Shown here one piece after another: positions 16,767-61,561 of a stretch of DNA of 64,000 bases (position 1 is its first letter; every line of letters starts with the position of its first letter). The stretch comes from Pseudomonadota bacterium. Lineage in GTDB: Bacteria; Bdellovibrionota_C; UBA2361. The DNA lies in NCBI GenBank assembly GCA_046047875.1, contig JBJOHD010000098.1, forward strand, positions 219-64,218. Reading direction: 5' to 3'. A program made the translations under genes and the position numbers. Under the pieces are notes generated by a model, which was given only the letters and a program-made list of their open reading frames with translations, was not told where the DNA came from and searched no databases.

Positions 16767-17672
16767 TTAGCCGCGCGATTTTATGAACGTGGCCAACTCG
16801 TTGGCCAACCTTATCGCAAGTTTCGGGGTGGCACCACTTACCACATGGAATCCGGCGACGAACGGCGCATTTAGCTCAGCCAGATGCAAACAATGGTGCA
16901 CCGAAAAATCGGCTAAGTCACGCTCCGGGTCGGCCTTCACAAGCGACTCTATCGCCTCCGATACCCTTACCCCCGGTACTTTGGCTAACCCCGCCACCGA
17001 GCGAGCCGACTTAAGAGGCATCAACCCCATGAGGATCGGTATTCCCACCCCCTGAGCCTCCTTGAAGAACTCCACCGAACTCACCTCATCGAAGACCGGC
17101 TGGCTTAACGCATAACGGGCCCCCGCATCGAGCTTCCTTTTAAGGCGCTTCAGCTCAGCACCCCGATTGCGCGCGTTCGGATTTACCACCACCCCCGGGA
17201 AATACTCAGGGGTCCCGGTAAGGGGATTCCCAACAAGATCCCGCCCCTCATTCAAAGTCTGGATGGCCCCAAGTAGCCCTATCGAGTTAACCTCGAACAC
17301 ACCTTTCCTCTCCGGAGAGTCCCCGATGGTCACCGCATCGCCGGTCAGGGCGATAACCGAGCGAATGCCAAGCGCCCACCCACCGAGAAGGTCAGCCTGA
17401 ATGGCGATAAGGTTCCTGTCCCGACACGAAAAATTGACGAGCGGTTCAATTCCAAAACGACTTTTTAAAATAGCTGCGAACGGAACGGCGGCGAGCCTCA
17501 TCTTGGCGAGAGCGCAATCGGTTACGTTAAAGAAGTCGATCCCCCCGACCTGCCCCTCGAGCCGGGCCAAGACATCCCCAACATCTACCCCCCGGGGAGG
17601 ATTCACCTCTAGACAGAGGAGGGGCCTCGATTTACCCCCCTTCAAAACCTCCCTTAAAAGCTCGAGCGCCAT
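16767..17672 (-). CDS. metF: 5,10-methylenetetrahydrofolate reductase
   Basis: 301 aa with the LLCLEVNPPRG...FFNVTDC TIM-barrel MTHFR signature. Confidence 0.8.
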   Translation of the reverse strand: MALELLREVLKGGKSRPLLCLEVNPPRGVDVGDVLARLEGQVGGIDFFNVTDCALAKMRLAAVPFAAILKSRFGIEPLVNFSCRDRNLIAIQADLLGGWALGIRSVIALTGDAVTIGDSPERKGVFEVNSIGLLGAIQTLNEGRDLVGNPLTGTPEYFPGVVVNPNARNRGAELKRLKRKLDAGARYALSQPVFDEVSSVEFFKEAQGVGIPILMGLMPLKSARSVAGLAKVPGVRVSEAIESLVKADPERDLADFSVHHCLHLAELNAPFVAGFHVVSGATPKLAIRLANELATFIKSRG

Positions 17673-26251: not shown

Positions 26252-28138
26252 TCAAGGCTCAGATGCAGCGGGCGGAGGGGGCGAGAGAAGCTCGACGACC
26301 CCGCCCGTCACCCGGATTAGATGACTCGCTGCTCCATCGAAGCGTTTACTGTGCGTCGCAAAGATAACGGTGGAGCCCTGCGCACAATATCCCTTGAGAA
26401 GCTCACCCACTGTCTGCACGAAATCGTCGCTCTGATTTGAGGTAACCTCGTCGAGGAAAACGACCTGCGGGCGGGGGATAAGCGCCGCTGCAAGGAGGAG
26501 GCGATGCTGCTCCCCAGTTGAAAATCCTCGCCCCCGTTCGAGTCCGTCTCCCACCCGGGTATCAAGCCCGTGATGCCTCATCAGTTCAGCGATGAGGTCC
26601 CGAATCAGCGGGTGGCTCGCGCGAGCCTCAAGATACTCATCGTTTCCGTCGCTTCCGCGGAGGATATCCCGCACCGAACGCCCCTCAAGAAGCGCGAGCC
26701 GCGCTCCGCAGTATACGATTCGGGAACGCCATTCGGAGAAGCGCACCTCGCTGAGCGGAACTCCACCCACCGTGACCGAGCCCGCTGTGGGTGCCGCGGC
26801 AAAGGCGAGATGCTCCAAAAAAGTCGTCTTCCCTGCGCCGCTTCCGCCGTGAACAACGGCGAAGCTGCCCGCTGGAATGCTGAGATTAGGGACCGAGAGC
26901 TGAAAATCCCCCCGTTGAAAGGTCGCGCGGTCAAGGTCGAGACGGTGGGAGTCGGGGAAATCGCGGTGCCCGGACATCGGTGTCGGCTCAACGAAGCGAT
27001 AGAATCGACGCGCCTCATCCCAGACCCGCCGGAAAGCATGGTAGGTTTCCCCGTGATTTGAAAGCTCCTCCCCGAGCTCTTTTAGTTGAAGAGACATGAA
27101 TGCAAACGTGCCGATCTCGATCGCCCCGACGGAATACTGATTATAGAGCATCGCGAGCCCCCCGAACATCGCCCCGTAGTACCCGACATAGGTGCCAAGA
27201 AGTTGAAGATTCTGCCGCCGTTCGTGTTGATCGCGCTCACCATCGAGCGCCGCTTGAAGATGCGAAAGCGTCCGAGCAAGAGACCCACTGAGCCCCCCTA
27301 AAACCATGCGGCTCGCCCCATCGGTACGATAGATCTCGTTTTCAATCCGGGCACCGATCTGCCCCTCTTTGCGCTGACGCCCCTCAAGGTCGACATCCGC
27401 ACTGACCTGTTTCGCTCGAAGGATAATCCCCGGCGCAACAGCGATGGCGACAAGAGCACCGATCCGCCAATCGACCGCAAGAAGTGCTCCGGCGCTGAGG
27501 GCGATCTTCGTTCCGTACGCCGGCAGCGCTGCCGAATGCTCGATGACGTGTGCCACGCTCGCCGCCCGGTCCGATTGAAGCTCGAGATCGGAGCGCCGCT
27601 CCTCGTCGTTAAGATCACGAAGGGTCGAGCGCCCGAGCGTATCGAGGAGCCGCTCTTTCAACCGTCGTAAGTACGACCGACCAAGTGTGTCGGTCGCGGT
27701 CTTGCCGGTACTATCGAGGTGATCAGCGAAGAGATAACACCCGCAAAAGACCGCCATGAAACCGAAAGCGATCGGTTGACGCTCAAGAGTGGCCTCAAGC
27801 GCCAAAACGGTCAGTGAGTAGAGTCCGGCCCACCGGAGCGCCTCGGAGGAGCAGCTGCGAAGCCCCTCAGCGAGGAGTCTTCCACGAGTAATACCCGCCG
27901 CGGCGAGGTCCTCGACGATCGTCGTCACAAGCGAACGGCGCGGCAGAGCGTCGAGCGACGGAAGGGTACCATCGATCGAAGGCGGCACATCAGCAGCGAG
28001 CCGCTTTGGCCCCTGAATCGCGGCTAAAGGGGAGTTAATCGGTGAGGGAACGCTCCCGTCTCTCGATCGTTCTCTGTCGTCGTTCGGCGAGGGTGCAAGC
28101 ATCGCTGCTATTGTGCCGACGAGCGGGGCAAAACTCAA
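26252..28138 (-). CDS. ABC transporter, fused permease/ATP-binding protein (exporter type)
   Basis: N-terminal 6-TM domain; Walker A GGSGAGKTTFLEHL; signature-like FSTGEQ; Walker B VVFLDEVTS. Confidence 0.75.
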   Translation of the reverse strand: MSFAPLVGTIAAMLAPSPNDDRERSRDGSVPSPINSPLAAIQGPKRLAADVPPSIDGTLPSLDALPRRSLVTTIVEDLAAAGITRGRLLAEGLRSCSSEALRWAGLYSLTVLALEATLERQPIAFGFMAVFCGCYLFADHLDSTGKTATDTLGRSYLRRLKERLLDTLGRSTLRDLNDEERRSDLELQSDRAASVAHVIEHSAALPAYGTKIALSAGALLAVDWRIGALVAIAVAPGIILRAKQVSADVDLEGRQRKEGQIGARIENEIYRTDGASRMVLGGLSGSLARTLSHLQAALDGERDQHERRQNLQLLGTYVGYYGAMFGGLAMLYNQYSVGAIEIGTFAFMSLQLKELGEELSNHGETYHAFRRVWDEARRFYRFVEPTPMSGHRDFPDSHRLDLDRATFQRGDFQLSVPNLSIPAGSFAVVHGGSGAGKTTFLEHLAFAAAPTAGSVTVGGVPLSEVRFSEWRSRIVYCGARLALLEGRSVRDILRGSDGNDEYLEARASHPLIRDLIAELMRHHGLDTRVGDGLERGRGFSTGEQHRLLLAAALIPRPQVVFLDEVTSNQSDDFVQTVGELLKGYCAQGSTVIFATHSKRFDGAASHLIRVTGGVVELLSPPPPAASEP

Positions 28139-28175: not shown

Positions 28176-29024
28176 CTATTTCATCAAAAGGAGGCTCAGT
28201 GCCATCACGAACATACCGGCACAGAGACCGAGGAGGCTATCGTGCCCCTTCCCGTAGGCGCGGCTCGTGGGCAAAAGTTCGTCAAGACTCACATACACCA
28301 TAATCCCCGCAACTCCCCCAAAAAGATATCCCATGATGTGCGATGGAATCCCCCCGTTATCACCACCAAGGAAAAATAGTATCCCCAGATATCCGAGCAG
28401 CGCCCCGAGCGGCTCAAAAAGCCCGCTCAGAAAGGAGTAGATAAACGCCTTACGGCGATTTCCGGTCGCGAAAAATATCGGCACCGAGACGCTCATTCCC
28501 TCTGGGATATTGTGAATGGCGATCGCGATGGCGATCGCTGCACCAACTTTTGGATCCTCAAGAGCGGAGAGAAACGTGGCCAGCCCCTCCGGAAAATTGT
28601 GGATGCCGATCGCGAGCGCTGTAAAAAGACCGACTCGAAAAAGTTTGTGATGATCGCCGTACGCAGGAGGAGCTTCTCCGTCTTTGTGGAGCGCCGCTGA
28701 GGCTGACTCGGACGGCATCTCGTGGGGGTTTTCAGCGGATGGAATAAGATTATCGATAAGAGCGATGAGCAGGAGTCCTCCGAAAAATGAGGCGACACCG
28801 ATCCAGGCTGACCAATAATCCCCATACTCCGCCCGAAGCGCGGCGGTCCCCTTCGGCATAATCTCCATAAACGAGACGTAAAGCATCACCCCGGCGGAGA
28901 AGCCTGTAGAGATCGAGAGAAATCGGTAACTCGAGCGCTTCGCGGCGAATGCGATAGCACTCCCGATCCCGGTCGCGAGTCCCGCAAAAAGGGTGAGGCC
29001 GAAGGCGAGAACGACGTTGCTCAT
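28176..29024 (-). CDS. ZIP family metal (zinc) transporter, ZupT-like
   Basis: HNFPEGLA and HNIPEGM motifs in TM helices; a His-rich central loop ([28 protein letters not shown]). Confidence 0.8.
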
Positions 29025-29220
29025 AACGGCTGTATTTTAAGGGGTACACTCCCCTGCCTGTCTACCCCTGATACCGCCAGGTTATTGCGGCACCGCCTCT
29101 GACAAAACGACGACTCTCCACCTTCTCCCGAGGCCCTCTCTGTCGTTTAAAGTCCGCCGGGTGCGCAAGGCGCTTACGGGTGCCGATCCTCCGCACAAGA
29201 TTTACGGTCATCGAAAGCCC

Positions 29221-29281
29221 CTAGTCCCTCGACAAATAAGTTTTTTCACTCCGGCGGAGTGAAAAACTAACTCACCACTAG
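29221..29281 (+). repeat. MITE-like structured repeat, copy 1 (internally truncated)
   Basis: ctagtccctcgacaaataagttttttcactccggcggagtgaaaaactaact then joins directly to ccactag; it shares the 5' half and the last 7 nt with copies 2 and 3. Confidence 0.7.
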
Positions 29282-29548
29282 CAGCTCTCCGTGGGTTCTC
29301 CCACTTCTTCGGATGTGGCGATATCAGACCCAACGCTCCGCTCGGTTGATGCTTCGCCCCCCTGCTCACACCCTCGATCGATTCGCCTGCTTTCAAGCAC
29401 TTAAAAGACCGTGCGTCTGCACCTCGAATCGCTTGCTCTGCGGCGGCGCCCGCAAACACCCCACTCAACGCCGACCGAAAAGTTGGGGGTCTCAGGTGGA
29501 GGAATATGCTAGCCTAGCGGGGGCAATTATTTTGGCTGTAGATCAATC

Positions 29549-29962
29549 ATGATGCTTGTTACCCGCGAGATCCACTTCAACGCTGCTCATCGGCTCCACA
29601 ATCCGGCGAAATCCGAAGAGTGGAACCGTCAGATGTACGGGCTCTGCAATTCTCCAAACTGGCACGGACATAACTATCGGCTCGAGGTGACCGTACGGGG
29701 CGATATCGACCCAGAGACCGGATACGTAATCGATCTCGGAGTTTTAAAGAGGATTTTAGAGGAGGAGATCGCTGTCGAATGCGATCACAAGAACCTCAAC
29801 CTTGATGTCCCGTTTCTCAGCGGTGTCATCCCGTCGACCGAGAATCTCGCTCTCATCTTTTGGGGGCGTCTCGAAGGGAAGCTCCCCCGCGGCAAACTAT
29901 TTTCCGTGAAGCTCTTTGAGACCGAGCGGAACTGGGTCGAATATCGGGGCCCGAACACATAA
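29549..29962 (+). CDS. queD: 6-carboxy-5,6,7,8-tetrahydropterin synthase / 6-pyruvoyl-tetrahydropterin synthase family
   Basis: 137 aa; Cx5HGH motif (CNSPNWHGHNY); N-terminal EIHFNAAHRL. Confidence 0.8.
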   Translation: MMLVTREIHFNAAHRLHNPAKSEEWNRQMYGLCNSPNWHGHNYRLEVTVRGDIDPETGYVIDLGVLKRILEEEIAVECDHKNLNLDVPFLSGVIPSTENLALIFWGRLEGKLPRGKLFSVKLFETERNWVEYRGPNT

Positions 29963-30070
29963 GAAAGATGCAAACGTGCCCCAGTGGGCCGGGGATACAC
30001 GCGTCAAACAACCTTGAATACGCGAAGGCTCCGCCGTTGTAGAAACCGGAGGATTCAGCGAAAATACACC

Positions 30071-30194
30071 GAGGACTAGTCCTTCAACAAATAAGTTTTT
30101 TCACTCCTGCGGAGTGAAAAACTAACTGAGGACTAGTGGTGAGCATAAATTCTAGTACCTTGCAGGTGAATGAATTTAATGGTCGAACCACTAG
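30071..30194 (+). repeat. MITE-like structured repeat, copy 2 (full length, ~124 bp)
   Basis: Imperfect terminal inverted repeats (ACTAGTCCTTCAAC ... GGTCGAACCACTAG); an internal perfect 11 bp hairpin TTTTTCACTCC-tgc-GGAGTGAAAAA; a second inverted pair ATAAATTC...GAATTTAAT. Confidence 0.8.
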
Positions 30195-30210
30195 AGAGCG
30201 CAAAGTTTAT

Positions 30211-31221
30211 ATGCCGCAAAAGAAAAAATCAGCTACCACGAAAAAAGCCCGAGATCCGGAGCTCTACCTCCACCATCACAACGGAGGAAAGAAGCCGAAG
30301 CTCGACCGCTCGTTCGACGCTGAGTTTCGTCCATCGAAAAAATATTACGCGTCGCTTCCCGACATGATGCTCGCTGAGCACGCGATTCAAGGGGCGAACG
30401 TCCCGATTCATCAAGTTGGTGTCTCAAATTTCAAACTCCCGCTCTCTTTTGCGCGCCGACACGGCCGGGCGTGGCTTCTTGAGGCGGCGGTCACCGGTTC
30501 GGTTTCGCTCCAGGCGAATATCAAAGGGATCAATATGTCCCGTATCGTTCGGAGTTTTTACGATCATCGCGCGGAGACGTTTTCCCTCGATACTCTCACA
30601 GCTATACTCGAGACGTACCGAAAGAAGGTTGGGAGCCTCGATGCCCGCCTCAAAGTGCAGTTTTCGTATCCGATTCTGCAAACGAGTCTCCGGAGCAATC
30701 TGAAGGGATATCAGTTCTACCGTTCGATCTACGAAGCGACGATCGATCGGAGGAACCGGGTGCGCCGTTTCATTACCTTTGACTTCGTCTATTCGTCGGC
30801 GTGTCCGTGCTCAGCCGAGCTCACCGAGCATGCGCGGGATACCCGGGGCCGCTACGGCATCCCCCACTCCCAACGGAGCAAGGCGCGCATTCGTCTCGAG
30901 ATCGCTCCAGGAAAAAAATTATGGATAGAAGACCTACAGGAGCTGTGTCTCGAGGCGCTTAAAACCGAGACACAGGTCATGGTCAAGCGCGAGGATGAGC
31001 AGGCTTTTGCAGAGATGAACGGCGCTTACATAAAGTTCGTAGAGGATGCGAGTCGGCTCCTCTTCGGTGTCCTCAACCGCGATAAGCGGATTCGTGATTT
31101 CGAGATAGCATGCTCCCATCTTGAATCGCTTCACTCCCACGATGCGGTAGCGGCGATCTGCAAGGGTATCCCCGGGGGCTTCACCGCCGACTTCACCGAC
31201 TTTAACGGGCTCGTCTGCTAG
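30211..31221 (+). CDS. folE2: GTP cyclohydrolase FolE2/MptA (GTP cyclohydrolase IB)
   Basis: [30 protein letters not shown] fits the FolE2 N-terminal region; a Cys-containing SSACPCSAE motif. The ATG at 30211 is preferred because the longer ORF start (30136) lies inside repeat copy 2. Confidence 0.6.
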
Positions 31222-31230
31222 GGGAAAACG

Positions 31231-31938
31231 ATGCGAAGTAAAGTTGCGCTCGTAACGGGAGCAGGCCGGGGGATCGGGAGAGCTGTGGCGCTCGCCCTCG
31301 CAGAAGACGGGTATCGGGTAGCGCTCGTCGCCCGGTCGGGTACCGAGCTCGAGCAGGTGGCGCGAGAGATCTCGCCAGCGCTTGAGACATCACGGGTGCG
31401 CCTTTTCCCCGGCGACGTATCGGAGGCGGCGCTCGCGCCGAGGATAGTGGACGAACTCGTCGCCGCATGGGGGGGAGTGGACATCCTCTTTAACAACGCA
31501 GGGGTCAATCCGAAAGGGAGCTTAGAGCTCTCAGTAAACGATTTTGAACAGATGCTCGCGGTAAACGTGACGGGAGCTTTCTCGTTCGCAAAAGCGGTCG
31601 TTCCGATCTTTAAACAGCAAAGCCGCGGTTATCTCTTCAATATCTCCTCGGTGTGCGGTAAACACGGATTCCCCGGTGTCGGGGGGTATACCGCCTCTAA
31701 ATTCGCGGTCCTAGGGCTCTCTGAATGTCTTTACCGCGAGCTTCTTCCTCTGGGAATCTCAGTCACCGCGATCTGTCCGAATTGGGTCGATACCGCGATG
31801 GCGCACCATTCGCCGGTAGCGCCCGGAGATCGCATCCAAACCGACGACCTGGTTAAAACGGTGCGGTACCTCTTGAGTCTCGGAAAGGGTGCCACGGTGC
31901 GGGAGATCGTCGTGGACTGCCGGTACGACCCGCTGTAA
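31231..31938 (+). CDS. SDR family oxidoreductase (possible pteridine/sepiapterin-type reductase)
   Basis: VALVTGAGRGIG; NNAG; S...YxxxK (YTASK). It sits immediately downstream of folE2 and queD/PTPS. Confidence 0.7.
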   Translation: MRSKVALVTGAGRGIGRAVALALAEDGYRVALVARSGTELEQVAREISPALETSRVRLFPGDVSEAALAPRIVDELVAAWGGVDILFNNAGVNPKGSLELSVNDFEQMLAVNVTGAFSFAKAVVPIFKQQSRGYLFNISSVCGKHGFPGVGGYTASKFAVLGLSECLYRELLPLGISVTAICPNWVDTAMAHHSPVAPGDRIQTDDLVKTVRYLLSLGKGATVREIVVDCRYDPL

Positions 31939-32073
31939 TAGAGTTCGCTTCGGGGCTCGAACGCGGGCTCGTGCCAGAGAAAAAACCGGCAACGAAGCCT
32001 TTTGTTCACTGACCGCCATCACTGCGAAAACCGCCGTGTGAGATAAACTAAGCCCCGTGCCGTTTTACGGAGG

Positions 32074-33132
32074 GTGCGGTCGGTGCTTAGGGGGGCGTTT
32101 TACCTTCTTCTTGCGGGAGTCCTCTTTCTCTGTGGCTGTACGCCGCGCTCGACTAAAGTACAAGTGGGCGATCCCCCTTCGCGAGCTGAGCTTGAATCGC
32201 TCGCTGCGCCGATCGCCCTCTACCCCGACCCCTTGCTCCAACGGGTCCTCACCGCTGCCACATTCCCCGATCAGATCCTCGATGCAGCGCTCTTTATCGA
32301 GCGGGGGGGTGAACCGAGCGAGATCGCTCGAAAGCCGTGGGAGCGATCGGTGAAGTACGTGGCAAACTATCCGACCATCCTCACCTCACTCGCCGACGAT
32401 ATCGACCGCACCGTTCGACTCGGAGCGGCGTTTACCGAAAGCCCTGACGAGCTCCGAGATTGTATTCAGACCCTCCGTCGGCGCGCGGTCGAGCACGGAA
32501 ACCTTAAAAGCTCGGCGTATCAGACCGTTCTTGCGAGCGGACCTACCGATGGCGGCGCGACAATTCTGATCGAACCGACCGACCCCGCGGTGCTTTACGT
32601 TCCAAGAAACACAACAACGCTCATCTACGAGCGACCTATCGCGGATCCGGCTGCGCTCTTCCTGCCCCTCGCCACGTTCGGGCTCGGTGTTGCGCTCGCT
32701 GCCACACTCGATCAAGACGACTTTTACTATTACGGCGGCCCGTTTTACGGCCCCGGATTTTGGTACGGTGGGCCGATCTATCGCCGCTGGTACACCTATC
32801 GCCACGATCGCTGGAGACACGATTACGATTACGGAAGAGGTCACTACAGAGATTGGGGGAAGCACCGCCACGAGCTTCACCAAAAGCACTCCGACTGGAG
32901 GCACCATCGGGCCGCTGGTGGAGGCTACCATCGAAGCCAGGGGCCACCCCCCGATAGCCGCGCCTCGTTTCGCCCCGCACCCCACCGCTCCGATCGCTCG
33001 ACCGGGGCCCCCTCTCACCGTGGCGGCGATCGAGGGGCACGCGGCAGCTCACCCCATCGGGGTGGTCACGCCCACACCGGGAGCTCGAGCGGGCGGGGAT
33101 TCGGGGGGCATCGGGGTGGAGGAAGACACTAG
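32074..33132 (+). CDS. DUF3300-like lipoprotein with a His/Arg/Gly/Tyr-rich C-terminal tail
   Basis: Lipobox LFLCGC; LESLAAPIALYPDPLLQRVLTAATFPDQIL matches the DUF3300 N-terminal motif. The C-terminal ~130 aa is low-complexity (HRGG, YRHDRWRHDYDYGRGHY). Confidence 0.55.
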   Translation: MRSVLRGAFYLLLAGVLFLCGCTPRSTKVQVGDPPSRAELESLAAPIALYPDPLLQRVLTAATFPDQILDAALFIERGGEPSEIARKPWERSVKYVANYPTILTSLADDIDRTVRLGAAFTESPDELRDCIQTLRRRAVEHGNLKSSAYQTVLASGPTDGGATILIEPTDPAVLYVPRNTTTLIYERPIADPAALFLPLATFGLGVALAATLDQDDFYYYGGPFYGPGFWYGGPIYRRWYTYRHDRWRHDYDYGRGHYRDWGKHRHELHQKHSDWRHHRAAGGGYHRSQGPPPDSRASFRPAPHRSDRSTGAPSHRGGDRGARGSSPHRGGHAHTGSSSGRGFGGHRGGGRH

Positions 33133-33248
33133 TCCTTCGACAAACGAGTTTTTTCACTCCCGCGGAGTGAAAAACTAACTCAGGACTAGTGGTGAGCATA
33201 AATTCTATTACCTTGCAGGTGAAAGAATTTAATGGTCGAACCACTAGT
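33125..33248 (+). repeat. MITE-like structured repeat, copy 3 (full length)
   Basis: Near-identical to copy 2, with hairpin loop cgc; it ends ...GGTCGAACCACTAGT. Confidence 0.8.
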
Positions 33249-33380
33249 TAGCGTCTCGAGCCCGCCCCAGGAAGCGCCGGGGTGGCGCTTCTATCGGATC
33301 GAAATCAAGGATTCCAACGCCCACCAGCATCAGGTCCTCCGATGCGAGCGGGCCCCATCTTAATGAGGAGACGAACACGG

Positions 33381-33872
33381 TTAGGCTCCGCGGCGCACAG
33401 CGAACATCACTTTGATTCCAAGGAGGAAGCTCCACCAAAAAACGCTCTGCGCACCGGTCCAGAGCCATCCCCACCACCGATGCACAAGCGAATCGAGTTG
33501 GAGCGTGACGGTGGTTGTGCCGTTTTTCTCCTCGAGCCAGAACTGGAGCCGGGTCGGGCGAATCATCCTCAGAGTAATGATAGAACTACCGTAGAGGTAA
33601 TCCATCGAGCGGTACTCCGGTGCCCGCACCTCAGTGATAATCGAGGGGAGGTTCATGAACGGTCCGTGGTGGTTCGTGTATACACCGGGGGTAAAATCAG
33701 CGGGGCCCCCTTCCGTTACCGGGAGGAACTCGACCCGCCACGGGGGAAGGTTCCCTTTTGTAAACGTGTCGGGATTACAGAGCCACCCCCACACCTTCTC
33801 GCGAGGAGCGCTCACGGTGACTGAACGCTTTACGACGTGGGGGGAAAAGCCTGGGGGGATCGGTTGGTTCAT
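33381..33872 (-). CDS. SRPBCC (START/Bet v1-like) superfamily protein
   Basis: RSVTVSAPREKVWGWLCNPDTF resembles the N-terminal motif of polyketide cyclase/SRPBCC proteins; 163 aa. Confidence 0.45.
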   Translation of the reverse strand: MNQPIPPGFSPHVVKRSVTVSAPREKVWGWLCNPDTFTKGNLPPWRVEFLPVTEGGPADFTPGVYTNHHGPFMNLPSIITEVRAPEYRSMDYLYGSSIITLRMIRPTRLQFWLEEKNGTTTVTLQLDSLVHRWWGWLWTGAQSVFWWSFLLGIKVMFAVRRGA

Positions 33873-34015: not shown

Positions 34016-34088
34016 GCCCAGGTAGCTCAGTCGGTAGAGCAGTAGACTGAAAATCTACGTGTCGGTGGTTCGATTCCGCCCCTGGGCA
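34016..34088 (+). tRNA. tRNA-Phe (anticodon GAA)
   Basis: GCCCAGGTAGCTCAGTCGGTAGAGCAGTAGACTGAAAATCTAC...GGTTCGATTCCGCCCCTGGGCA: a 7 bp acceptor stem, D-loop AGCTCAGTCGGTAGAGC, anticodon loop CTGAAAA, and a T-loop GGTTCGATTCC. Confidence 0.9.
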
Positions 34089-34170
34089 CATATCTTTCCC
34101 CCCCAAAAAAATCTCCCCCCCCCCAAGTTTTTCCCCCCAAATCTCCCCCCCCCAAGAACTTCCCTATCCT
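34089..34170. repeat. Homopolymeric poly-C/poly-A tract region with an 18 bp direct repeat immediately 3' of tRNA-Phe
   Basis: cccccccaaaaaaatctcccccccccaag...ccccccaaatctcccccccccaag: C7, A7, C9, C6 and C9 runs; aaatctcccccccccaag occurs twice. Confidence 0.7.
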
Positions 34171-34253
34171 TTTTCGCTGGTTGGATTGGGAGTCGTACCG
34201 CCAAGTCTCTGAGACTGTGCGGTGAAACCTCGTTATTTGATAGCGCTCGGGAT

Positions 34254-35273
34254 ATGCTCTCCCCGATGGCGCAGACCGACCCTGTAAAGCTCGTTCAAGA
34301 ACTCGCCGCACTCCCCGAGTGCGCCCCCGCGGTGATGGTCGTGTGCCCCGACGGGGTACGCCGGGAGCGGGTGGTCGAAACGCTCTTAAAACCGTTCACG
34401 AACACACGCGATCCCCTCGCGGTAAAAAGGCTTCGCGGGGAAGATCTCTCCCCCCGTGCTCTCGAGGAGCTGAAAAACGATCTCCTCTCGGTTTCCCTGT
34501 TTTCACCGAAACGGTTCTTCGTTATCCGCGATATCGAGAGAGCGACCGCCGCCGCCGCCAAAGAGCTCGCCGCGATTATCGAGACGATCCCTCCAGGCTC
34601 GCACGTCGTTCTCACCGCAGCCGAGCTCAAGACTACGAATCCGCTCCACAAAGTTTTTTCCAAAGCGAAACGACTCGTTGAATTCCCCCCTCTCGAGGGG
34701 CTCGATCTTAAGCGGTGGGTGCAAAAAGAGTTAAAAGCAGCGGGGCTCACCGAGATCGGCAGCGGCGTCGTTGAAACGATCATCGACGTGGGAGGGGACT
34801 CCGCCGAAACGATCAGTACCGTCATCGAGCGAACGGCGCTCTACCTCGACGGAGGGAAGATCGAGGTAAAAGATGTACGGTCCCTCTTTACCGCCGCCCC
34901 CGACCCGAACGAGTTTGCGCTTATCGATGCTATCGCGGCTAAAAACCCCGCGGGGGTCGAGGTACTGCTCCACGAACTCTTCGAGGAGGGGAAGAATCCG
35001 TTCCTACTCCTCTCGCTCCTCGGCCGAACGTACTCCAATTTTCTGGTGATAAAGCGGCTCCTCGATTCGGGGCGCTCGCCTGCGGATGTACGCCAGCTCA
35101 TGGGGATGACCCAATGGGTCTTCGACAAGCAGCTTCAAGGACTCCGCCGCTACTCGACCCCGCAGCTCGCGAAAGCGCTCGGCGCCATCGTGCGCGCGGA
35201 CTCGAAGCTGAAAAACAGATCGCTCGGCACCGATGAGGTAATCGGTAGTCTGTGTGCTGAACTGCGTCCGTAA
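34254..35273 (+). CDS. holA: DNA polymerase III subunit delta
   Basis: ~340 aa from the ATG at 34254 (the longer ORF start at 34059 overlaps the tRNA and the poly-C tract); length and composition fit HolA. The call is tentative. Confidence 0.55.
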   Translation: MLSPMAQTDPVKLVQELAALPECAPAVMVVCPDGVRRERVVETLLKPFTNTRDPLAVKRLRGEDLSPRALEELKNDLLSVSLFSPKRFFVIRDIERATAAAAKELAAIIETIPPGSHVVLTAAELKTTNPLHKVFSKAKRLVEFPPLEGLDLKRWVQKELKAAGLTEIGSGVVETIIDVGGDSAETISTVIERTALYLDGGKIEVKDVRSLFTAAPDPNEFALIDAIAAKNPAGVEVLLHELFEEGKNPFLLLSLLGRTYSNFLVIKRLLDSGRSPADVRQLMGMTQWVFDKQLQGLRRYSTPQLAKALGAIVRADSKLKNRSLGTDEVIGSLCAELRP

Positions 35274-45899: not shown

Positions 45900-47807
45900 T
45901 CACTCTCCTCTCCCGGCCCACTCGTCGGTACGGACTGAGGGTGGGTCACTTTTCAGGCACCCTTCACGGTGAAGGGTGCAGGCAAACTTCTCAACATCGA
46001 TCGGCTTCTGAAAAATACCGCTCACCTGAGCAACAAGGCATCTCTCGATATCACCCTCTCCCGAGACCGCATAGATAGGGACACCCCGATCCTTCGCGCG
46101 AATATACTCAACGAGCTTTCGCCCCCCACCGAGGGGCATGCCGAGATCGGTCACAACAATATCGGGCGCGGCGAAGTTAAAGATGCCGATAGCCTCGGGA
46201 ACCGAGGTGGCGATGACGGTCTCAACCGGGTAACGGGAGAGCGCCCGAGCGAGGCTCCGACACGAATCGGGATCGTCGTCGACGAGGAGGATGGTGGGGG
46301 GGTGAACACGCCGGTCACCGCAGGGTAGGCTGCCTTTCTGAATTGAAGCACACTCCACAGAGCGCTGCTCCGTGAGCGGGAAGGTAACGGTAAATAAAGT
46401 TCCTACGTGAGGGGTCGAGGAAACCTCGATCGACCCACCGTTCGCCTCAACAAGCGCTCGTGCAACGACCAGTCCGAGACCGATCCCCTCGATCGAGCGA
46501 TCACCAAAGCGCTGAAATGGGGTAAAGAGCTGCTCGACCTCAGATGCTGTCATACCGACCCCGGAATCTCTGATAGCTATCGAACACCGAGCCTCATCGC
46601 TCTCAACACGAACTCCGATTGACCCCCGCTGGGTGTACTTCACCGCATTTCCAACGAGGTTTGCGACGATTCGGCGGAGGTGTCGGCGATCGATCGAGAT
46701 ATCGACCGGGGCATCGACCTCTGCACTGAGGATCGTCACCCCTTTTTTACTCGCTGTTAGGGCGAAGCTTTGCAGCACCTCCCCTAGTACTGTCGGCACA
46801 CACACCCTCTCCCGCCGCACCGGTAAGCGGCCCTCCCTAAACCGGGTAAAATCAAGGATATCATCGACAAGCTCTCCCGCAGCCTCGCAGTTACGCGCCG
46901 CGATATCGATGAGCTCAGACGCCCCATCACCCTCGGTCTCGCTGCGTAATAAGGAGAGGACTGCGTGAACGTTGTGGAGCGGCGATCGTATATCGTGCGA
47001 GATATGTGCGAGGAACTCCGACTTCCTATCGCTTGAGCGCTCGGCGTCGTCAGCTCGAGCTGACGCTTCGCGAACCGCCTCTAGCAGCCGGAGATCCTCC
47101 TCGATCCGTCGCACGCTGTCTCGGAGCTGGCCCGCCTCGGTGTCGGTCGGAGGGTAATGGTGGGGGAATCCGAGCCAAGCTACCCCGCGGCGAGATAGAC
47201 CCCCGCGGCAAAAGCTAAATGGGTATGCGCCGATATACCTATATCCAAGCTCTGCGAACTCACCGAACACACCACGATGAAGTGATCCATCCCGTATCCC
47301 CCCGGGAGCTCCCGCCCCGGTTCTGAGATAATCTCCGTAGAGCCGCGCCGCCACCGCTCTCAATCGGGTCGAATCGCTAAGAGGTCCCTCGAGGACAACA
47401 CCGCTCGCCGGATCGTGGAGCACGATCGCTGCGCCGCTCGCTCCTGAAACGGCAGAAAGCTCCCTCAAGGACCGTCCCCATACCTCCGCCTCGGTCGTCG
47501 GACACCCTAAGCGATAGGTCGTAGGCTCCCGCTCGACCGCATCGCTCGAAGGGGTAAATCCCACCCGAAATTTAAGGTAATCTACCACGCTTACGATCGA
47601 GTCGACCCGCTCCTTAAGGGACGTTGGCCACGCCCGGAGGAGCACCCCAGGGGACTCTTCGTTGAGCGCCCGCTCCATCCGCTGAAGATAGCTACCGAAG
47701 AGGAACCTCCCCCCAAGGAGACCACCAACGACTCCAACCGCAAACGCCAGGGAAGCGTCCCCGAAGCTACTGAGTGTAAACCAGCGCTCCACCATCACTC
47801 CGAGCAT
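45900..47807 (-). CDS. Hybrid sensor histidine kinase/response regulator
   Basis: HisKA H-box (FLAHISHDIRSPL), HATPase (N-box LVGNAVKYT, G-boxes DSGVGM, GIGLGL), and a C-terminal REC (ILLVDDDPD...DLGMPLGGG). Confidence 0.8.
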   Translation of the reverse strand: MLGVMVERWFTLSSFGDASLAFAVGVVGGLLGGRFLFGSYLQRMERALNEESPGVLLRAWPTSLKERVDSIVSVVDYLKFRVGFTPSSDAVEREPTTYRLGCPTTEAEVWGRSLRELSAVSGASGAAIVLHDPASGVVLEGPLSDSTRLRAVAARLYGDYLRTGAGAPGGIRDGSLHRGVFGEFAELGYRYIGAYPFSFCRGGLSRRGVAWLGFPHHYPPTDTEAGQLRDSVRRIEEDLRLLEAVREASARADDAERSSDRKSEFLAHISHDIRSPLHNVHAVLSLLRSETEGDGASELIDIAARNCEAAGELVDDILDFTRFREGRLPVRRERVCVPTVLGEVLQSFALTASKKGVTILSAEVDAPVDISIDRRHLRRIVANLVGNAVKYTQRGSIGVRVESDEARCSIAIRDSGVGMTASEVEQLFTPFQRFGDRSIEGIGLGLVVARALVEANGGSIEVSSTPHVGTLFTVTFPLTEQRSVECASIQKGSLPCGDRRVHPPTILLVDDDPDSCRSLARALSRYPVETVIATSVPEAIGIFNFAAPDIVVTDLGMPLGGGRKLVEYIRAKDRGVPIYAVSGEGDIERCLVAQVSGIFQKPIDVEKFACTLHREGCLKSDPPSVRTDEWAGRGE

Positions 47808-49072
47808 CGGGGCTCCGATCGAGAACGCTCCTCACACAATCGCTCCACATGAGCGCAGAGTATCCGAGGGTCGGCGCCTTTCGATACGAACGCAGCAACC
47901 CCCGCTTCGATAAGCTCTATCTCCACGTCAACGTCAGAGGCTGAGGTAAGCGCTACAAGCGGTACACCCCTGCCCGCTGAGGTGGCGCGAAGACGTCGAA
48001 TGAAATCGTATCCACTCATCCCCGGCATATGCACATCACAGATGATAAGGTCGAGCTCCGCGCCATCCTGAAGCGCTTGCCACGCTTCGTCGGCCGATGA
48101 GAACGGCTGCACCGAAAAGCGGTGGCGCTCAAGAAACCGGCGTAATACATCGCGGAAAGTCGGGTCATCGTCGATGACAAAGATCGAGCCCCGCGTCGTA
48201 TCGGGAGCTCGGTGCGGGAGCGGGGAGGAACCTTGCCGAGTCGGCGAAGCTCCCCCTAAGGAGCGCCGCGCCTCGGGCCACCCAAGGATGTAACGCTCGT
48301 CCCCACTCTCGCGCTCAATCGTCACGGCGCACGGAGAGCCGTCAGGAAGAACGAGAGCGACTCGCGGCTCCCGCACTACCTCCGCAATCCCCGGCCGCAG
48401 CATTCCGTGCAGGTACCCCCGAACCTCTGCGGTGCCCCCCTCAAACGGCGCATAGCTTAGATCCTCCCCACTGAGATCGAGCAGCAATCGGGTGCTCCCG
48501 CACCCCGAGACCTCATGCACGATGATACCAAGAACCGCCTCGGTGGTCTCGCGAAGACGCCCGAGTGAATCACGCAGTGCAGCAGTCTTAATCTCAGCCA
48601 GCACCCGCTCAGATTCGTGCAGATGCCGTTTAATCTCAGACCACGGCGCTAGAGCGCGGGGGGTCGTGCCGAGTTTTTCTACTAGATGATCGACCCGGTC
48701 GATATCGGCGCACACAACGCAAACCACCGTACCCCGTTCGGTGATTACGGTCGCTCCGCTTGCATCGAGGAGAGCCGTGCTTACTCCGCTTGGAAGGCAG
48801 GTAAAATCAGCGGCGGGAATCCTCTCAAAATACGGAACACCCCGCTCTTTCGCCCACACCCGAACTATCTCGCTGGATGTCATACACCGAGCTTCGGCTA
48901 TCGCATCGATCAAAAGACGTCGATCCGGGGTGAGCCCGATGATCCGCTGCAGATCCTCGATCGATACGTAGCGACCGAGGAGCTCGCTCAGCCCTAAACT
49001 CCCCCGCTGAGATCCCCCTCGCCACGGATAAAGGCGCCTTAGCCACGTGCTGATCACGGCCACGCCGCTCAT
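47795..49072 (-). CDS. Response regulator with an N-terminal GspE-N/MshEN-like domain and a C-terminal receiver
   Basis: C-terminal REC (IFVIDDDPTFRDVL...DLIICDVHMPGMSGYDFIRRL). The N-terminal SLGLSELLGRYVSIEDLQRIIGL resembles the T2SS-E N-terminal (MshEN-type) fold. Its stop overlaps the hybrid HK start. Confidence 0.55.
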   Translation of the reverse strand: MSGVAVISTWLRRLYPWRGGSQRGSLGLSELLGRYVSIEDLQRIIGLTPDRRLLIDAIAEARCMTSSEIVRVWAKERGVPYFERIPAADFTCLPSGVSTALLDASGATVITERGTVVCVVCADIDRVDHLVEKLGTTPRALAPWSEIKRHLHESERVLAEIKTAALRDSLGRLRETTEAVLGIIVHEVSGCGSTRLLLDLSGEDLSYAPFEGGTAEVRGYLHGMLRPGIAEVVREPRVALVLPDGSPCAVTIERESGDERYILGWPEARRSLGGASPTRQGSSPLPHRAPDTTRGSIFVIDDDPTFRDVLRRFLERHRFSVQPFSSADEAWQALQDGAELDLIICDVHMPGMSGYDFIRRLRATSAGRGVPLVALTSASDVDVEIELIEAGVAAFVSKGADPRILCAHVERLCEERSRSEPRCSE

Positions 49073-49761
49073 AAAAACACCTCCGTTCGAACCGCCACAG
49101 CATGAGCGGCGGAGACGAAATGAGGCAGCCCGATCTGTGCGAGCACCTCCTTCAAAAATCCATCGTCGATCGTTTTAAATAGCCGCACCCCGAGCACAGC
49201 GGCAGATCGAAGGTACCGACCATCACCTCCAGGGGATTCCCGAGCAAGAAGCCCCTGAACCTCGTCCCTCGATCTCAGCTCTGCAAGCTCTCTGGCCATC
49301 GCGTGAATATCGATGCGCTCGAGCTCCCCGTTCGGAACTACCATTGAGATAGCGCTGCGATCGATGAAATGAATGTCGTGAAGCCGCGGCTCGCCGGTGA
49401 CCTCATCGACACCGATAATCCCGAGCGTTGCATCGATGCGGTATTCGATCGAGTTGAGGGGAGAGCCCTCTCGGTAGAGATCAACGGCCACGCTGCCGAT
49501 TAACTCTTCAAGCGCTGTATCGATCTCATCGTAGCGGACCACGACCTCGGCTTCGCCCATCGCACCCGAGCGAAGGGTGAACGGCATTACGCGCTCTTCG
49601 TTCAGCGATTTAACGACGATGCGCTCAAGCTCTGCAGAGGCTTCAAGGAATTTAACGACGGCCAACGCTGTGATGATGAATGGAATAGCAACCACCCCAA
49701 GAATAGCCATCTCCAAAAGGGCGATACCCCGGCTTCTCTGCAGCTTGCGGCGTTCTCTCAT
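49069..49761 (-). CDS. TadE/TadG-like pseudopilin/pilus assembly protein
   Basis: N-terminal RGIALLEMAILGVVAIPFIITALAVVKF matches the TadE-like motif. Confidence 0.55.
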   Translation of the reverse strand: MRERRKLQRSRGIALLEMAILGVVAIPFIITALAVVKFLEASAELERIVVKSLNEERVMPFTLRSGAMGEAEVVVRYDEIDTALEELIGSVAVDLYREGSPLNSIEYRIDATLGIIGVDEVTGEPRLHDIHFIDRSAISMVVPNGELERIDIHAMARELAELRSRDEVQGLLARESPGGDGRYLRSAAVLGVRLFKTIDDGFLKEVLAQIGLPHFVSAAHAVAVRTEVFL

Positions 49762-51920
49762 CGGGCGATACCTCCACCGCTTCGGTCGAGTAGGATCATC
49801 GGGAGAACCGAATCGAGTACACCCGCCCCCTCCGACGCGAAAATCGGAGTAATCTGAAACGCCGCCTCAGCGGTATCGACTCGATAACTCCCGAGGAGCT
49901 CGGTAAGGAGCATACGCTCGTCAGGCTCTACCGTCGTATCAAGCCCCGGAAGTATGACGAGATAGATCGCTATCCGCGCCCGACGATCGATGAGAAGCTC
50001 CCGATAGAGAGATAGAACGGCATGGAGCTTCTCCTGGACGGGGGGGCTCGGAAATCGTTCACCCTGACTCCACGGGAGGTCTCCTGAAAATATTATTCCG
50101 AGCCGCCGCGCATGCGGGGCGAAACCACCCCGTTCGCCCACATCCGGCGCTCCAAGCAAGGTGGTAAATATCCCCTCGATAACAGCACCGATCTCCCCTA
50201 TCCCGGAGGTTATCGGAGTTTGTGCTCGTACCGGACTCATCCAGACCGCTCGGCCAACCGAGGGGGACGGCTCCCCTGTGCCGCTCATCGAGCCCGCGAA
50301 GCGATTCACCGGGAATCGGTAATGGGAATACCATTCCTCTTCGAGCGCCGCGTCCGCGCAATCGGCAGCAGTAATCATCTCATCGACGTACCGCGGCTCA
50401 ACGACGCGCACCAGCTCGCTCCCCCCAAACGATCGCACAAGCTCGAACTCGACCCCGTCGCCGGGAAAGATCCCTACGCCTATCCGGCTATCGCCGAAAG
50501 CGCTGAGGTAGTTATGGGCGCGGATCGCCCCGAGCTTGAGCGCCGAGACTATCGGATTAAAACACCGTGCCGTTAGCCTCCGGGGATCCCGAGGGGGGGT
50601 ATACCGGCCACTCAGCTCATCGAAGTACCGGGCCGCACCCCACTCCCCGATATCCCCCCAATCGCTCCCCCCAGAGGAAGCTGGTGCAAGGTAGCGGCTT
50701 AGATCGAGGGCGATTACCCCATCCACCGGACGGGATCTCGCTCGGGCGTAGAGGGTATACGATACATCTCCTGCCACACCGAGAAGTCGCGGGAAGAAGA
50801 GGGTGTTTACACCACGATACATTACCTCGACTGAGTTTCCGGTGGCTTCTACTTCCGCCCCAGACGCAAGGTCGAATCGCTCAAGGTATCGAAGGGTCTG
50901 CTCTCTTGCCTCCTCGGCGCGAGGTAGGTCGCGGACCCCCAAGAGCACGGCATCATCGAGCCGCTGCTGGCGCACCGCGTTGTCGAAAGTTGCCGCTCTT
51001 AGATCCAGTGCAAGGGTTGCTAGAAGGAAGCAGACCGGGAGAATGATAAAAGCGAGGAATAGCGTCAACACGCCACGGTCATCGACGAGTGGAGGAGCCT
51101 TGCTGCTCGAGACCGCACCCTTCGTCATCGAACTCACTTGTAGGAGGGGAACGGTAATAAAGCAGATGACGAGCCCGGTGAAAGTACAAATGAGCGGTGC
51201 TGTGGCTTTAACCGGAAGCTTTGCGATCTCCTCTTCGACGCTCTCTTGAAAGAAAAGCTGGGTTGAATTTCCCAATTCACGGAGTGGCTTAATAAGCTCC
51301 CCTCCCTCGCGGTGAGCGAGCGCGAGGTGAAGAAAGGCGTGACGAATCGAAATCACCTTACTCTCGGCCGCAACCTCCCGTAGGGTATCCTCAAGACCGC
51401 CTCCCCGGTCAACCCGATCAAGAACCTGCCGAAGAAGCTCCGTAACTGAATCCTCGGTGGCTGCTCCATGAACAGCTGCAGGGGTCTCGACGACCCGCCG
51501 GATAGCTCCGAGAACATCGGCGCCCGCTTCGACCGCCATCACGATCCCCTCCATAACGAGGGGGAGATGAAAATTGCATCTCCGTTCAACGGCTTCGAGG
51601 AGACGACGCCGACGTCCCTCATTCCAAAGATAGGCGCTCCCCAAACCGACCGCGAGAAACGAGAAAAGGGGAAGCATCGACAACCCACCGATCGTTCCAT
51701 ACAGCAGAGCACCCAGTATAATAAAAACAACTCCGCCGATAACGGGTCGCTCGAACCGCCTCCCCCTGCTCGGCGCACGCGAGCTCCCCACACCCATTTC
51801 CTGCATCTCCGTGAGGTCGTCTGCAACATCGCGAGGTGAGCGCGCGGTACCGCGCACCAAATGGTAGGCGCTTCCAAGAACGAGCGCGACACACACCAGG
51901 ATCTCCGTCTGGAACGTCAT
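49758..51920 (-). CDS. TadC-like (T2SS-F family) membrane protein fused to a ~400 aa C-terminal extension (possibly degenerate vWA/TadG-like)
   Basis: The N-terminal ~300 aa has the GspF-type TM organisation expected after tadB. The C-terminal extension contains a vWA-like motif VDGVIALDLSRY. 720 aa in total. Confidence 0.5.
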   Translation of the reverse strand: MTFQTEILVCVALVLGSAYHLVRGTARSPRDVADDLTEMQEMGVGSSRAPSRGRRFERPVIGGVVFIILGALLYGTIGGLSMLPLFSFLAVGLGSAYLWNEGRRRRLLEAVERRCNFHLPLVMEGIVMAVEAGADVLGAIRRVVETPAAVHGAATEDSVTELLRQVLDRVDRGGGLEDTLREVAAESKVISIRHAFLHLALAHREGGELIKPLRELGNSTQLFFQESVEEEIAKLPVKATAPLICTFTGLVICFITVPLLQVSSMTKGAVSSSKAPPLVDDRGVLTLFLAFIILPVCFLLATLALDLRAATFDNAVRQQRLDDAVLLGVRDLPRAEEAREQTLRYLERFDLASGAEVEATGNSVEVMYRGVNTLFFPRLLGVAGDVSYTLYARARSRPVDGVIALDLSRYLAPASSGGSDWGDIGEWGAARYFDELSGRYTPPRDPRRLTARCFNPIVSALKLGAIRAHNYLSAFGDSRIGVGIFPGDGVEFELVRSFGGSELVRVVEPRYVDEMITAADCADAALEEEWYSHYRFPVNRFAGSMSGTGEPSPSVGRAVWMSPVRAQTPITSGIGEIGAVIEGIFTTLLGAPDVGERGGFAPHARRLGIIFSGDLPWSQGERFPSPPVQEKLHAVLSLYRELLIDRRARIAIYLVILPGLDTTVEPDERMLLTELLGSYRVDTAEAAFQITPIFASEGAGVLDSVLPMILLDRSGGGIAR

Positions 51921-51923
51921 CTT

Positions 51924-52712
51924 CTAAATCCGCGCACGTACGAGATAGGCCATCCATCCCAGGCCTACCACCATAAGGGCACCGCCAGCGCTCAGCGCTG
52001 CAACACCACGGGGATCTCCCAGGGCCACACCGACTCCGTGGGGATTGGATAACCACTGAAAAACACCGATACAGACCGCACACCCCGCGATTCCGATCGC
52101 GGAGAGACGCTGCATCGCGACCGCCCCCCGAATCTTTCGCCGAAACGATTGACGTTGGCGGGTTACTCGCGCGAGGCGATGCAGGCACTCGCCGAGCGAG
52201 CCACCCTCCCGGCGGGCTATGAGGTAGGCGTTTTGAAGCAGGCGAACATCGGGGTGCCCGCTCGATCTTCCGAAAAGCCGGATAGCGGCCTCTTCCTCAA
52301 CTCCTGATTCGATCGCCCGAGTAAACACCTCAAGTTCCCGGCGCAAAAGTGAACCCTCTGGGAAAAGGGTTGCGGCTGAGGTCAGCGCGACCAGCGGATC
52401 GAGCCCCGCGCGCACCGAGGAGGCGAGCGCCACCAGCAGCGTCGGATAGTCCCGCTCGAACCCTTCGATTCGTTCGAAGCGTTGCCGACTGCGGCGGAGC
52501 ACCGCTCCGACTCCACCGATCGCGCAGACACCCAGTGCGATGAGGCCCCCGAGCCATATAAAAGCGACGAGCAGCACCAGGAATAAAAGAGCCCGCACGC
52601 CCATCGGTGCGGTGGGGAGTTCGGAGTGCGAGGGGAGCTCCTCTTCGGGCTGGTCTGTTCCCCAAGCGAGGAATCGGGCCCGTCGCAGGTCCCGTGTTCG
52701 TAACCCGATCAC
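51924..52712 (-). CDS. tadB: Flp pilus assembly protein TadB-like (type II secretion system F family)
   Basis: 262 aa with an N-terminal TM pair plus a C-terminal TM, positioned directly after cpaF. Confidence 0.6.
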   Translation of the reverse strand: MIGLRTRDLRRARFLAWGTDQPEEELPSHSELPTAPMGVRALLFLVLLVAFIWLGGLIALGVCAIGGVGAVLRRSRQRFERIEGFERDYPTLLVALASSVRAGLDPLVALTSAATLFPEGSLLRRELEVFTRAIESGVEEEAAIRLFGRSSGHPDVRLLQNAYLIARREGGSLGECLHRLARVTRQRQSFRRKIRGAVAMQRLSAIGIAGCAVCIGVFQWLSNPHGVGVALGDPRGVAALSAGGALMVVGLGWMAYLVRARI

Positions 52713-54058: not shown

Positions 54059-54059
54059 C

Positions 54060-54968: not shown

Positions 54969-54979
54969 ACACCACCCCG

Positions 54980-61518: not shown

Positions 61519-61561
61519 GTGAGCGACCGTACCTACGGAAAATCTCCCGATATCGGGTAAG

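Follow-up and report, generated by a model that had tools for sequence, protein, structure and literature searches.

We analyzed a 64,000-nt stretch (hereafter, the window) of contig JBJOHD010000098.1 from assembly GCA_046047875.1, a Pseudomonadota bacterium placed by GTDB in Bdellovibrionota_C, and found that the segment from position 29507 to 31938 on its forward strand is probably a three-gene operon for the synthesis of a tetrahydrobiopterin (BH4)-type pterin cofactor. Its genes encode, in order, a 6-pyruvoyltetrahydropterin synthase (PTPS), the type IB GTP cyclohydrolase FolE2, and a short-chain dehydrogenase/reductase (SDR). In the pathway that we propose, FolE2 would convert GTP to 7,8-dihydroneopterin triphosphate, the PTPS, as a member of class PTPS-II, would convert the latter to 6-pyruvoyl-tetrahydropterin, and the SDR, using NADPH, would reduce the diketo side chain in the manner of a sepiapterin reductase to yield the BH4-type cofactor. 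The gene identities come from an open reading frame (ORF) map and family profile scans (Pfam and NCBIfam) of the region from 28176 to 33132; all five genes that a first-pass annotation had named there, namely, those for a ZIP importer, the PTPS, FolE2, the SDR, and a DUF3300 lipoprotein, are present. That annotation had also raised a biopterin-type pathway from the combination of a GTP cyclohydrolase, a PTPS with a Cx5HGH motif, and an SDR, and to this our analysis adds a conserved operon, a canonical PTPS-II, and a sepiapterin reductase-type SDR at the SDR position in Opitutae. Direct support thus comes from the families of FolE2 and PTPS and the class of the latter, from the conservation of the residues that they use for catalysis and metal binding, and from a gene order that recurs among relatives.

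The first gene of the operon (29549 to 29962, forward strand) encodes a 137-aa protein of the PTPS family (PF01242; E = 5.9e-35) that aligns with the rat PTPS (PDB code 1b66; E = 6e-41; 143 bits) over 130 residues without a gap. PTPS-II is a zinc enzyme, as established for the rat protein, and the roles of its zinc ligands, of the catalytic residues Cys42, Asp88, and His89, and of Glu133 are known from the structures of that protein. In the window PTPS, H14, H39, and H41 align with the rat zinc ligands H23, H48, and H50, and C33, D79-H80, and E124 align with rat C42, D88-H89, and E133, so that the ligands, the Cys-Asp-His triad, and the glutamate are all shared with this mammalian enzyme; the window PTPS, in turn, belongs to a bacterial operon. 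The subfamilies of PTPS can be told apart by their signatures around the HGH motif: CxxxxxHGH marks PTPS-II, which acts in biopterin synthesis; ExxHGH marks PTPS-III, which bypasses FolB; and CxxxHGH marks PTPS-I/QueD (PMC5041015). The window protein reads LCNSPNWHGH, i.e., Cx5HGH with Pro at position -3 and Ser at position -4, and hence displays neither the PTPS-III glutamate nor the PTPS-I cysteine. The first-pass annotation had framed the question as one of class I versus class III; judged by its active-site residues, the protein falls into neither and is a canonical PTPS-II only. The Cx5HGH motif is likewise present in all 37 of the single or C-terminal PTPS domains that adjoin this FolE2 subfamily; among those counted are a duplicate of the window itself (L001) and three loci that are nearly identical. 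In nine loci of Armatimonadota (L011, L016, L018, L022, L025, L026, L031, L035, and L037), the protein encoded just upstream of FolE2 is a fused double PTPS of ~283 aa, whose N-terminal domain is without the catalytic Cys (W/F-x5-HGH) and whose C-terminal domain is a normal Cx5HGH PTPS-II.

These features also bear on the two other roles that a PTPS homolog might play. A role in queuosine synthesis, whether as an ordinary QueD or as the low-zinc form QueD2, is extremely unlikely. It has the Pfam family in common with QueD, and QueD2 paralogues can be Zur regulated (PMC9894224), but it lacks Cx3HGH, scores 65 bits against TIGR03367 (cutoff, 89 bits), reaches only ~37 bits with the E. coli QueD structures versus 143 bits with the rat PTPS, and has 137 aa versus the 190 to 200 aa of the cluster-5 QueD2 proteins (PMC9894224). 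Further, none of QueC, QueE, and QueF, whose proximity the first-pass annotation had considered indicative of a plain QueD, was found among the scanned ORFs of the window. This Pfam scan, on which the window-wide negative results given here rest, was a partial one that took in ORFs of at least 70 aa; the genes for PEPCK, RpiA, MBOAT/AlgX, a histidine kinase, the Tad pilus, and a GT39-like membrane protein, recognized from sequence or JGI annotation, and a few small candidate ORFs of 70 to 110 aa stood outside it.

A bypass of folate synthesis is a second alternative, in which the PTPS would act as a PTPS-III, converting dihydroneopterin triphosphate to 6-hydroxymethyl-dihydropterin in place of the dihydroneopterin aldolase FolB and so feeding FolK and FolP. 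In agreement with the first-pass annotation, which had raised this possibility, FolB was not found among the scanned ORFs of the window, while folP (2979 to 3788), folK (8316 to 8831), and the gene for methylenetetrahydrofolate reductase (metF; 16767 to 17672) are present. Moreover, a PTPS 72% identical to that of the window, from locus L088 (7382 to 7804), reads CNSENYHGH and so has both the PTPS-II cysteine and a PTPS-III-type glutamate at position -3; it may be a dual-function variant. The window PTPS shares its fold and its substrate, dihydroneopterin triphosphate, with the PTPS-III proteins of Plasmodium and diverse bacteria, but unlike them it has Pro where ExxHGH has its Glu, and its gene clusters with that of an SDR, whereas folK and folP are at distances of 21 kb and 26 kb, respectively. 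This conserved partner is not needed for a FolB bypass, and the lack of folB in 64 kb is uninformative on the rest of the genome. Pribat and colleagues are said to have found in 2009 that PTPS proteins with the Cys only failed to complement an E. coli folB mutant, and we count this against the bypass as well. In view of the failed motif test, we consider it highly improbable that the PTPS replaces FolB.

FolE2, the 336-aa product of the second gene (30211 to 31221, forward strand), would supply the GTP cyclohydrolase I activity, whether of type IA or type IB, that is expected of a BH4-type cluster. It scores 272 bits against the equivalog model NF010200 (cutoff, 215 bits) and matches PF02649 with an E value of 2.5e-67; it can be aligned to the structures 2r5r, 8g6c, and 3d2o, with the motifs CPCS, HSQRS, and ESLHSHDA in register, and it carries an N-terminal Lys/His-rich extension of ~50 aa. 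The longest version of the ORF, from a GTG codon at 30136, begins inside a copy of a repeat element described below. We place the start of the gene at the ATG codon at 30211, the predicted start on which the 336-aa JGI call on an identical metagenome contig and the onset of homology with the closest related locus, L002, agree. No type IA FolE was found among the scanned ORFs of the window.

To determine how widely the arrangement is conserved, we collected 80 genome loci with a member of this FolE2 subfamily and searched them with the window proteins. The PTPS gene lies directly upstream of FolE2 in 31 of the 80 loci, an SDR gene directly downstream in 21, and both flank it in 18, leaving 13 of the 31 PTPS-FolE2 loci without an adjacent SDR. 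The closest relative, L002, encodes FolE2 and PTPS proteins that are each 90% identical to those of the window and an SDR that is 80% identical, and the part that it shares with the whole 64-kb window extends only from 29506 to 31942, its flanks being unrelated. The triplet recurs in further contexts in L085 to L087 (FolE2, 90% identical; SDR, 79%) and in L088 (SDR, 59%), so that physical clustering of the three genes is seen both in the set of 80 loci and in L085 to L088. Such clustering is itself a criterion by which PTPS-II proteins have been assigned to BH4 synthesis (PMC5041015, with the contexts in the SEED subsystem "PTPS paralogs"). Since the triplet is kept across changing contexts without ZupT or DUF3300, the conserved functional unit is PTPS-FolE2-SDR, and the ZIP importer and the DUF3300 lipoprotein are its neighbors in the window genome only. 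When 111 ORFs flanking 34 PTPS-FolE2 loci were classified with Pfam, the only recurrent families were metallo-beta-lactamase (MBL)-fold hydrolases and pyruvate kinase; no metal-related or pterin-use family recurred among these flanks. In 35 of the 80 FolE2 loci (e.g., L006, L052, and L067), the gene for the MBL-fold metallo-hydrolase is divergent from FolE2 or from the PTPS-FolE2 pair and is backed by a pyruvate kinase gene.

Upstream of the operon, we noted a candidate extended -10 promoter element (TGCTAGCCT; 29507 to 29515, forward strand), 33 nt before the start codon of the PTPS gene. An element of the form TGnTAnnnT lies no more than ~120 nt upstream of the PTPS gene in all eight relatives compared, mostly at 25 to 50 nt and at 102 nt in L019; the variants are TGCTATCCT in L002 and L088, TGCTAGACT in L003, TGCTATTCT in L024, TGGTAGGAT in L085 and L087, and TGACTATAAT in L019. 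The eight upstream regions share no other motif. A generic sigma-70 scan did not call the element at 29507 to 29515, and it returned promoter-like sites no more often than in shuffled sequence.

The contexts of FolE2 in loci without a PTPS gene throw light on the role of this cyclohydrolase. There, FolE2 has housekeeping genes for neighbors, and a gene for a Nudix hydrolase, which may be a dihydroneopterin-triphosphate pyrophosphatase, comes directly after it in 11 such loci (marine, Puniceicoccaceae type). Given these associations, FolE2 seems to serve these lineages as their resident GTP cyclohydrolase I rather than as a zinc-sparing spare copy. By FolE2, the nearest genomes are metagenome-assembled genomes (MAGs) binned from freshwater lakes and labeled Bdellovibrionota or Bdellovibrionales, the isolate names of which suggest a Lake Mendota time series. 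Opitutae (Verrucomicrobiota), Kiritimatiellae, and Armatimonadota supply most of the next-nearest FolE2 proteins (56 to 69% identical), and a few belong to Deinococcales, Longimicrobiales, and Burkholderiales. The FolE2 and PTPS genes are 60 to 69% identical to those of Opitutae, while the host MAGs are labeled Bdellovibrionota, and the interval from 30001 to 31000, which holds the FolE2 gene, has a G+C fraction of 0.525 versus ~0.58, among the lowest in the window. Both features would fit an acquisition of the PTPS-FolE2 pair by horizontal transfer.

The third gene (31231 to 31938, forward strand) starts 9 nt after FolE2 and encodes a 235-aa classical NADP-type SDR (PF00106; E = 2e-53), whose best match in the PDB is an uncharacterized protein (3nyw; E = 1.5e-51). 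All of its homologs that are at least 55% identical and whose context was examined lie in the operon. In Opitutae, the SDRs at the equivalent operon position are 34 to 37.5% identical to the Chlorobium tepidum sepiapterin reductase (PDB code 2bd0) over their full length; for the one Opitutae protein tested, that of L006, 2bd0 is the best PDB match, with an E value (3e-43) ten orders of magnitude below that of the runner-up, and a recognizable sepiapterin reductase thus occupies this position. The SDR subfamily of the window is also found at the third position in L002, L003, L019, L024, and L085 to L088. Some lineages therefore have a bona fide Chlorobium-type sepiapterin reductase at this position, and the lineage of the window has another SDR subfamily there. 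From the Chlorobium-type nature of the Opitutae counterpart and the 9-nt spacing between FolE2 and the SDR gene, we infer, by operon position alone and not by family membership, that the window SDR may act as the side-chain (sepiapterin-type) reductase. Its substrate, the exact product, including its stereochemistry and any subsequent glycosylation, and the consumer of the cofactor are likewise to be taken as presumptive. We also considered whether the SDR is a FolM- or PTR1-like protein and rejected this, since it has the classical TGxxxGxG motif and not TGx3RxG, the motif known for FolM.

Several observations weigh against our interpretation of the operon. The window SDR is only 31% identical to 2bd0 over 196 residues, its 60 best PDB matches do not include that structure, and by family it is therefore not a recognizable sepiapterin reductase. 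Its homologs at ~50% identity occur in unrelated contexts, next to TonB receptors, MFS transporters, and the like. Neither among the scanned ORFs of the window nor beside the operon in relatives did we find an aromatic amino acid hydroxylase (PF00351), a pterin carbinolamine dehydratase (PF01329), or a pterin glycosyltransferase. Finally, the hairpin of the repeat copy inserted between the PTPS and FolE2 genes could uncouple their transcription in the window genome. The points on the SDR raise the alternative that PTPS and FolE2 make 6-pyruvoyl-tetrahydropterin while the SDR acts on an unrelated substrate, the side chain being reduced by other enzymes or the product being a different pterin; the generic nature of the SDR subfamily and the 13 PTPS-FolE2 loci without an adjacent SDR both speak for it. 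Set against this are the two SDR subfamilies that fill the same position across several phyla, one of them of the Chlorobium sepiapterin reductase type, the 9-nt gap, which implies translational or transcriptional coupling with FolE2, and the location in the operon of all homologs of at least 55% identity whose context was examined. We hence regard an SDR with a role outside the pathway as unlikely and a three-step BH4-type pathway as the probable function of the operon. For the enzyme that might use the cofactor, one lead comes from L085 (8010 to 8981), L086 (5132 to 6103), and L087 (3987 to 5504), where a DNA photolyase/cryptochrome gene (PF00875 and PF03441) lies 1.3 to 2 kb downstream of the SDR gene. 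The photolyase gene occurs only in these three loci, which are near-identical (FolE2, 90% identical to that of the window), and not in the window; the proximity may be due to chance or may point to a function of the pterin connected with light.

Together with FolE2, the two genes that flank the operon had led the first-pass annotation to propose a candidate zinc limitation module. The first, divergent from the PTPS gene (28176 to 29024, reverse strand), encodes a ZupT-type ZIP metal importer that scores 370 bits against NF003243 (cutoff, 252 bits) over residues 1 to 282, i.e., a full-length equivalog. In the same orientation, a gene for a CydD/CydC-like ABC exporter (26252 to 28138, reverse strand) begins 37 nt downstream of zupT, and the two may form one operon. 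The second flanking gene (32074 to 33132, forward strand) encodes a DUF3300 lipoprotein (PF11737; E = 7e-35), and the His/Arg/Gly-rich C-terminal tail ascribed to it is indeed there: residues 234 to 352 include 22 Arg, 22 Gly, and 17 His among 119 residues. The protein shares with the DUF3300 family (E. coli YacH type) a signal/lipobox and a low-complexity tail ending in GGGRR. Its orthologs retain canonical lipoboxes and the tail; in a small clade of orthologs (P0121 to P0127), this tail is enriched in His, Arg, Trp, and Tyr, whereas the tails of the wider family are rich in Q, N, S, and R and end in GGGGRRR. The MAG of the window has a second DUF3300 paralogue (P0138; RL417_684) that is 43% identical. 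NCBI called the DUF3300 gene of the window (RL417_873), while the JGI gene caller missed it on the identical contig and called instead an antisense ORF of 181 aa (32386 to 32931, reverse strand) over the GC-rich low-complexity tail.

According to the zinc limitation proposal, the five genes are co-induced at low zinc under Zur control, with FolE2 replacing a zinc-dependent FolE and the lipoprotein tail capturing metal. Its premise of folE2 in Zur regulons holds in several phyla: Zur controls folE2 in Bacillus, Pseudomonas, Xanthomonas, and cyanobacteria and controls zupT in Francisella and Cupriavidus (PMC6103462). FolE2 further has a relaxed metal requirement (PMC9894224), the ZupT and PTPS genes share a divergent intergenic region of 524 bp, and the tail of the lipoprotein, with its 14% His, is kept in the orthologs. 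The linkage on which the proposal depends is not conserved, however. All 80 FolE2 loci are without a ZupT or DUF3300 homolog, although in 23 of them the sequence extends for more than 2 kb upstream of PTPS; no ZupT homolog is present in L085 to L088; and L002, L085 to L087, and L088 have other flanking genes. The one DUF3300 ortholog whose context we examined (P0125, 62% identical; locus L089) is surrounded by genes for MsrA, a GT2 glycosyltransferase, a histidine kinase, and MgtE, with no link to pterin, ZIP, or zinc genes seen at that locus. The three intergenic regions contain only palindromes of 6 to 9 nt and the hairpin of the repeat element, with no Zur-like palindrome, the Zur motif of the host lineage not being known. 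A member of the Fur/Zur family and the usual Zur partners, namely, COG0523, ZnuABC, and ribosomal paralogues, were not found among the scanned ORFs of the window. While the window gene belongs to the same GTP cyclohydrolase IB family as the Zur-regulated folE2 genes, such as yciA of B. subtilis and those of Pseudomonas, Xanthomonas, and cyanobacteria, it differs from them in that no Zur box, zur, COG0523, or ZnuABC was detected with it and in that its ZIP neighbor is not conserved. A PTPS-II, which binds catalytic zinc through three conserved His residues, would also be an odd member of a zinc starvation regulon. Taken together, these findings make a Zur-type module of five genes very unlikely, and ZupT and the DUF3300 lipoprotein are independent neighbors placed beside the operon by local rearrangement in a repeat-rich region.

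The repeats in question are real: their hairpin core gives eight strand matches at four sites in the window, against none expected by chance. A partial copy (copy A; 29215 to 29281, forward strand) lies in the ZupT-PTPS intergenic region, a second (copy B; 30073 to 30200, forward strand; 93% identical to the copy at 33128 to 33253) lies between the PTPS and FolE2 genes, and a third (copy C; 33123 to 33253, forward strand) overlaps the DUF3300 stop codon; these three are within 4 kb around the pterin operon, and the fourth is at ~61559 to 61685 on the reverse strand. The element is genome-specific, is ~125 nt long, and consists of two stem-loops, CTAGTCC...TTTTTCACTCC-nGC-GGAGTGAAAAA...GGACTAG followed by CTAGTGGT...ACCACTAG, with predicted folding z scores of -4.3 for copy B and -6.7 for copy C. 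It has no match in Rfam and is absent from every one of the 88 related loci fetched. A scan of a metagenome collection for the repeat core returned no copy, although the same collection failed to yield even the JGI contig whose sequence matches this part of the window exactly. The element could be a miniature inverted-repeat transposable element (MITE), a repetitive extragenic palindromic (REP)-like element, or a small structured RNA. The PTPS-FolE2 spacer measures 248 nt in the window versus ~120 nt in L002 and 15 nt in L088, and copy B is an insertion into this spacer. On the forward strand, its hairpin is not followed by a run of T, a terminator-like signal being called only on the reverse strand, and because of this, it is plausible that transcription reads through copy B from PTPS into FolE2. 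The idea that the repeats carry regulatory sites did not hold up, as no recognizable regulatory site was found in them; what they mark is a rearranged region.

Over the whole window, Rfam detected only a tRNA-Phe, with no riboswitch or known RNA from 28900 to 33500 beyond a chance-level match. This tRNA-Phe(GAA) (34016 to 34089, forward strand) overlaps the 5' end of a long ORF (34059 to 35273) for the delta subunit of DNA polymerase III (holA), and for this reason the real start of holA must be further downstream than 34059. The gene for a fusion protein of VKOR with thioredoxin/DsbA (1624 to 2982, forward strand) adjoins folP. From ~49.7 to 56.6 kb (within 45900 to 56587, reverse strand), we recognized by eye, outside the Pfam scan, a Tad/Flp-type pilus cluster with CpaF-like ATPase, TadB/C-like, and CpaB-like genes. 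A response regulator domain (PF00072) is present in the ORF from 47795 to 49072, which adjoins the histidine kinase gene that stood outside the Pfam scan.

The operon type to which we assign the PTPS, FolE2, and SDR genes is already known. The three-step scheme has been described, with FolE2 among the abbreviations in the legend of the figure on pathway and gene context (PMC5041015). The BH4 pathway of Chlorobium tepidum consists of the same three activities, a GTP cyclohydrolase I, a PTPS-II with the Cx5HGH motif, and the sepiapterin reductase of structure 2bd0. It differs from the window operon in using FolE where the latter has the type IB enzyme FolE2 and in its reductase, which is of a subfamily other than that of the window SDR (31% identical; best PDB match, 3nyw) and is matched in type by the reductase of the Opitutae operons. 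The twists in the present case are thus the FolE2-based first step and the nonorthologous SDR as the reductase. We searched the literature for reports on BH4 in Verrucomicrobia or Bdellovibrio and came upon none that bear on the matter.

In a more far-reaching scenario for this uncultured freshwater lineage, the FolE2-PTPS-II pair, 60 to 69% identical to that of Opitutae, would have had its sepiapterin reductase of the Chlorobium type replaced by an SDR unrelated to it and, in this one genome, would have come under metal control jointly with the divergent ZupT gene and the His-rich periplasmic DUF3300 lipoprotein. We give this scenario only a very small chance; if true, such joint control would link the zinc supply for PTPS to pterin synthesis, with the photolyase of the close relatives as one possible consumer. 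Separating the PTPS-II/FolE2/SDR unit from its two look-alike neighbors prevents the false annotation of a "zinc regulon" in this region. The presence of two SDR subfamilies at one operon position, for its part, calls for caution in the annotation of SDRs and PTPS paralogues by homology only. Our findings also add to the evidence that, among uncultured Opitutae, Armatimonadota, and Bdellovibrionota-like lineages, synthesis of tetrahydrobiopterin-type cofactors by way of FolE2, the zinc-independent cyclohydrolase, is widespread.

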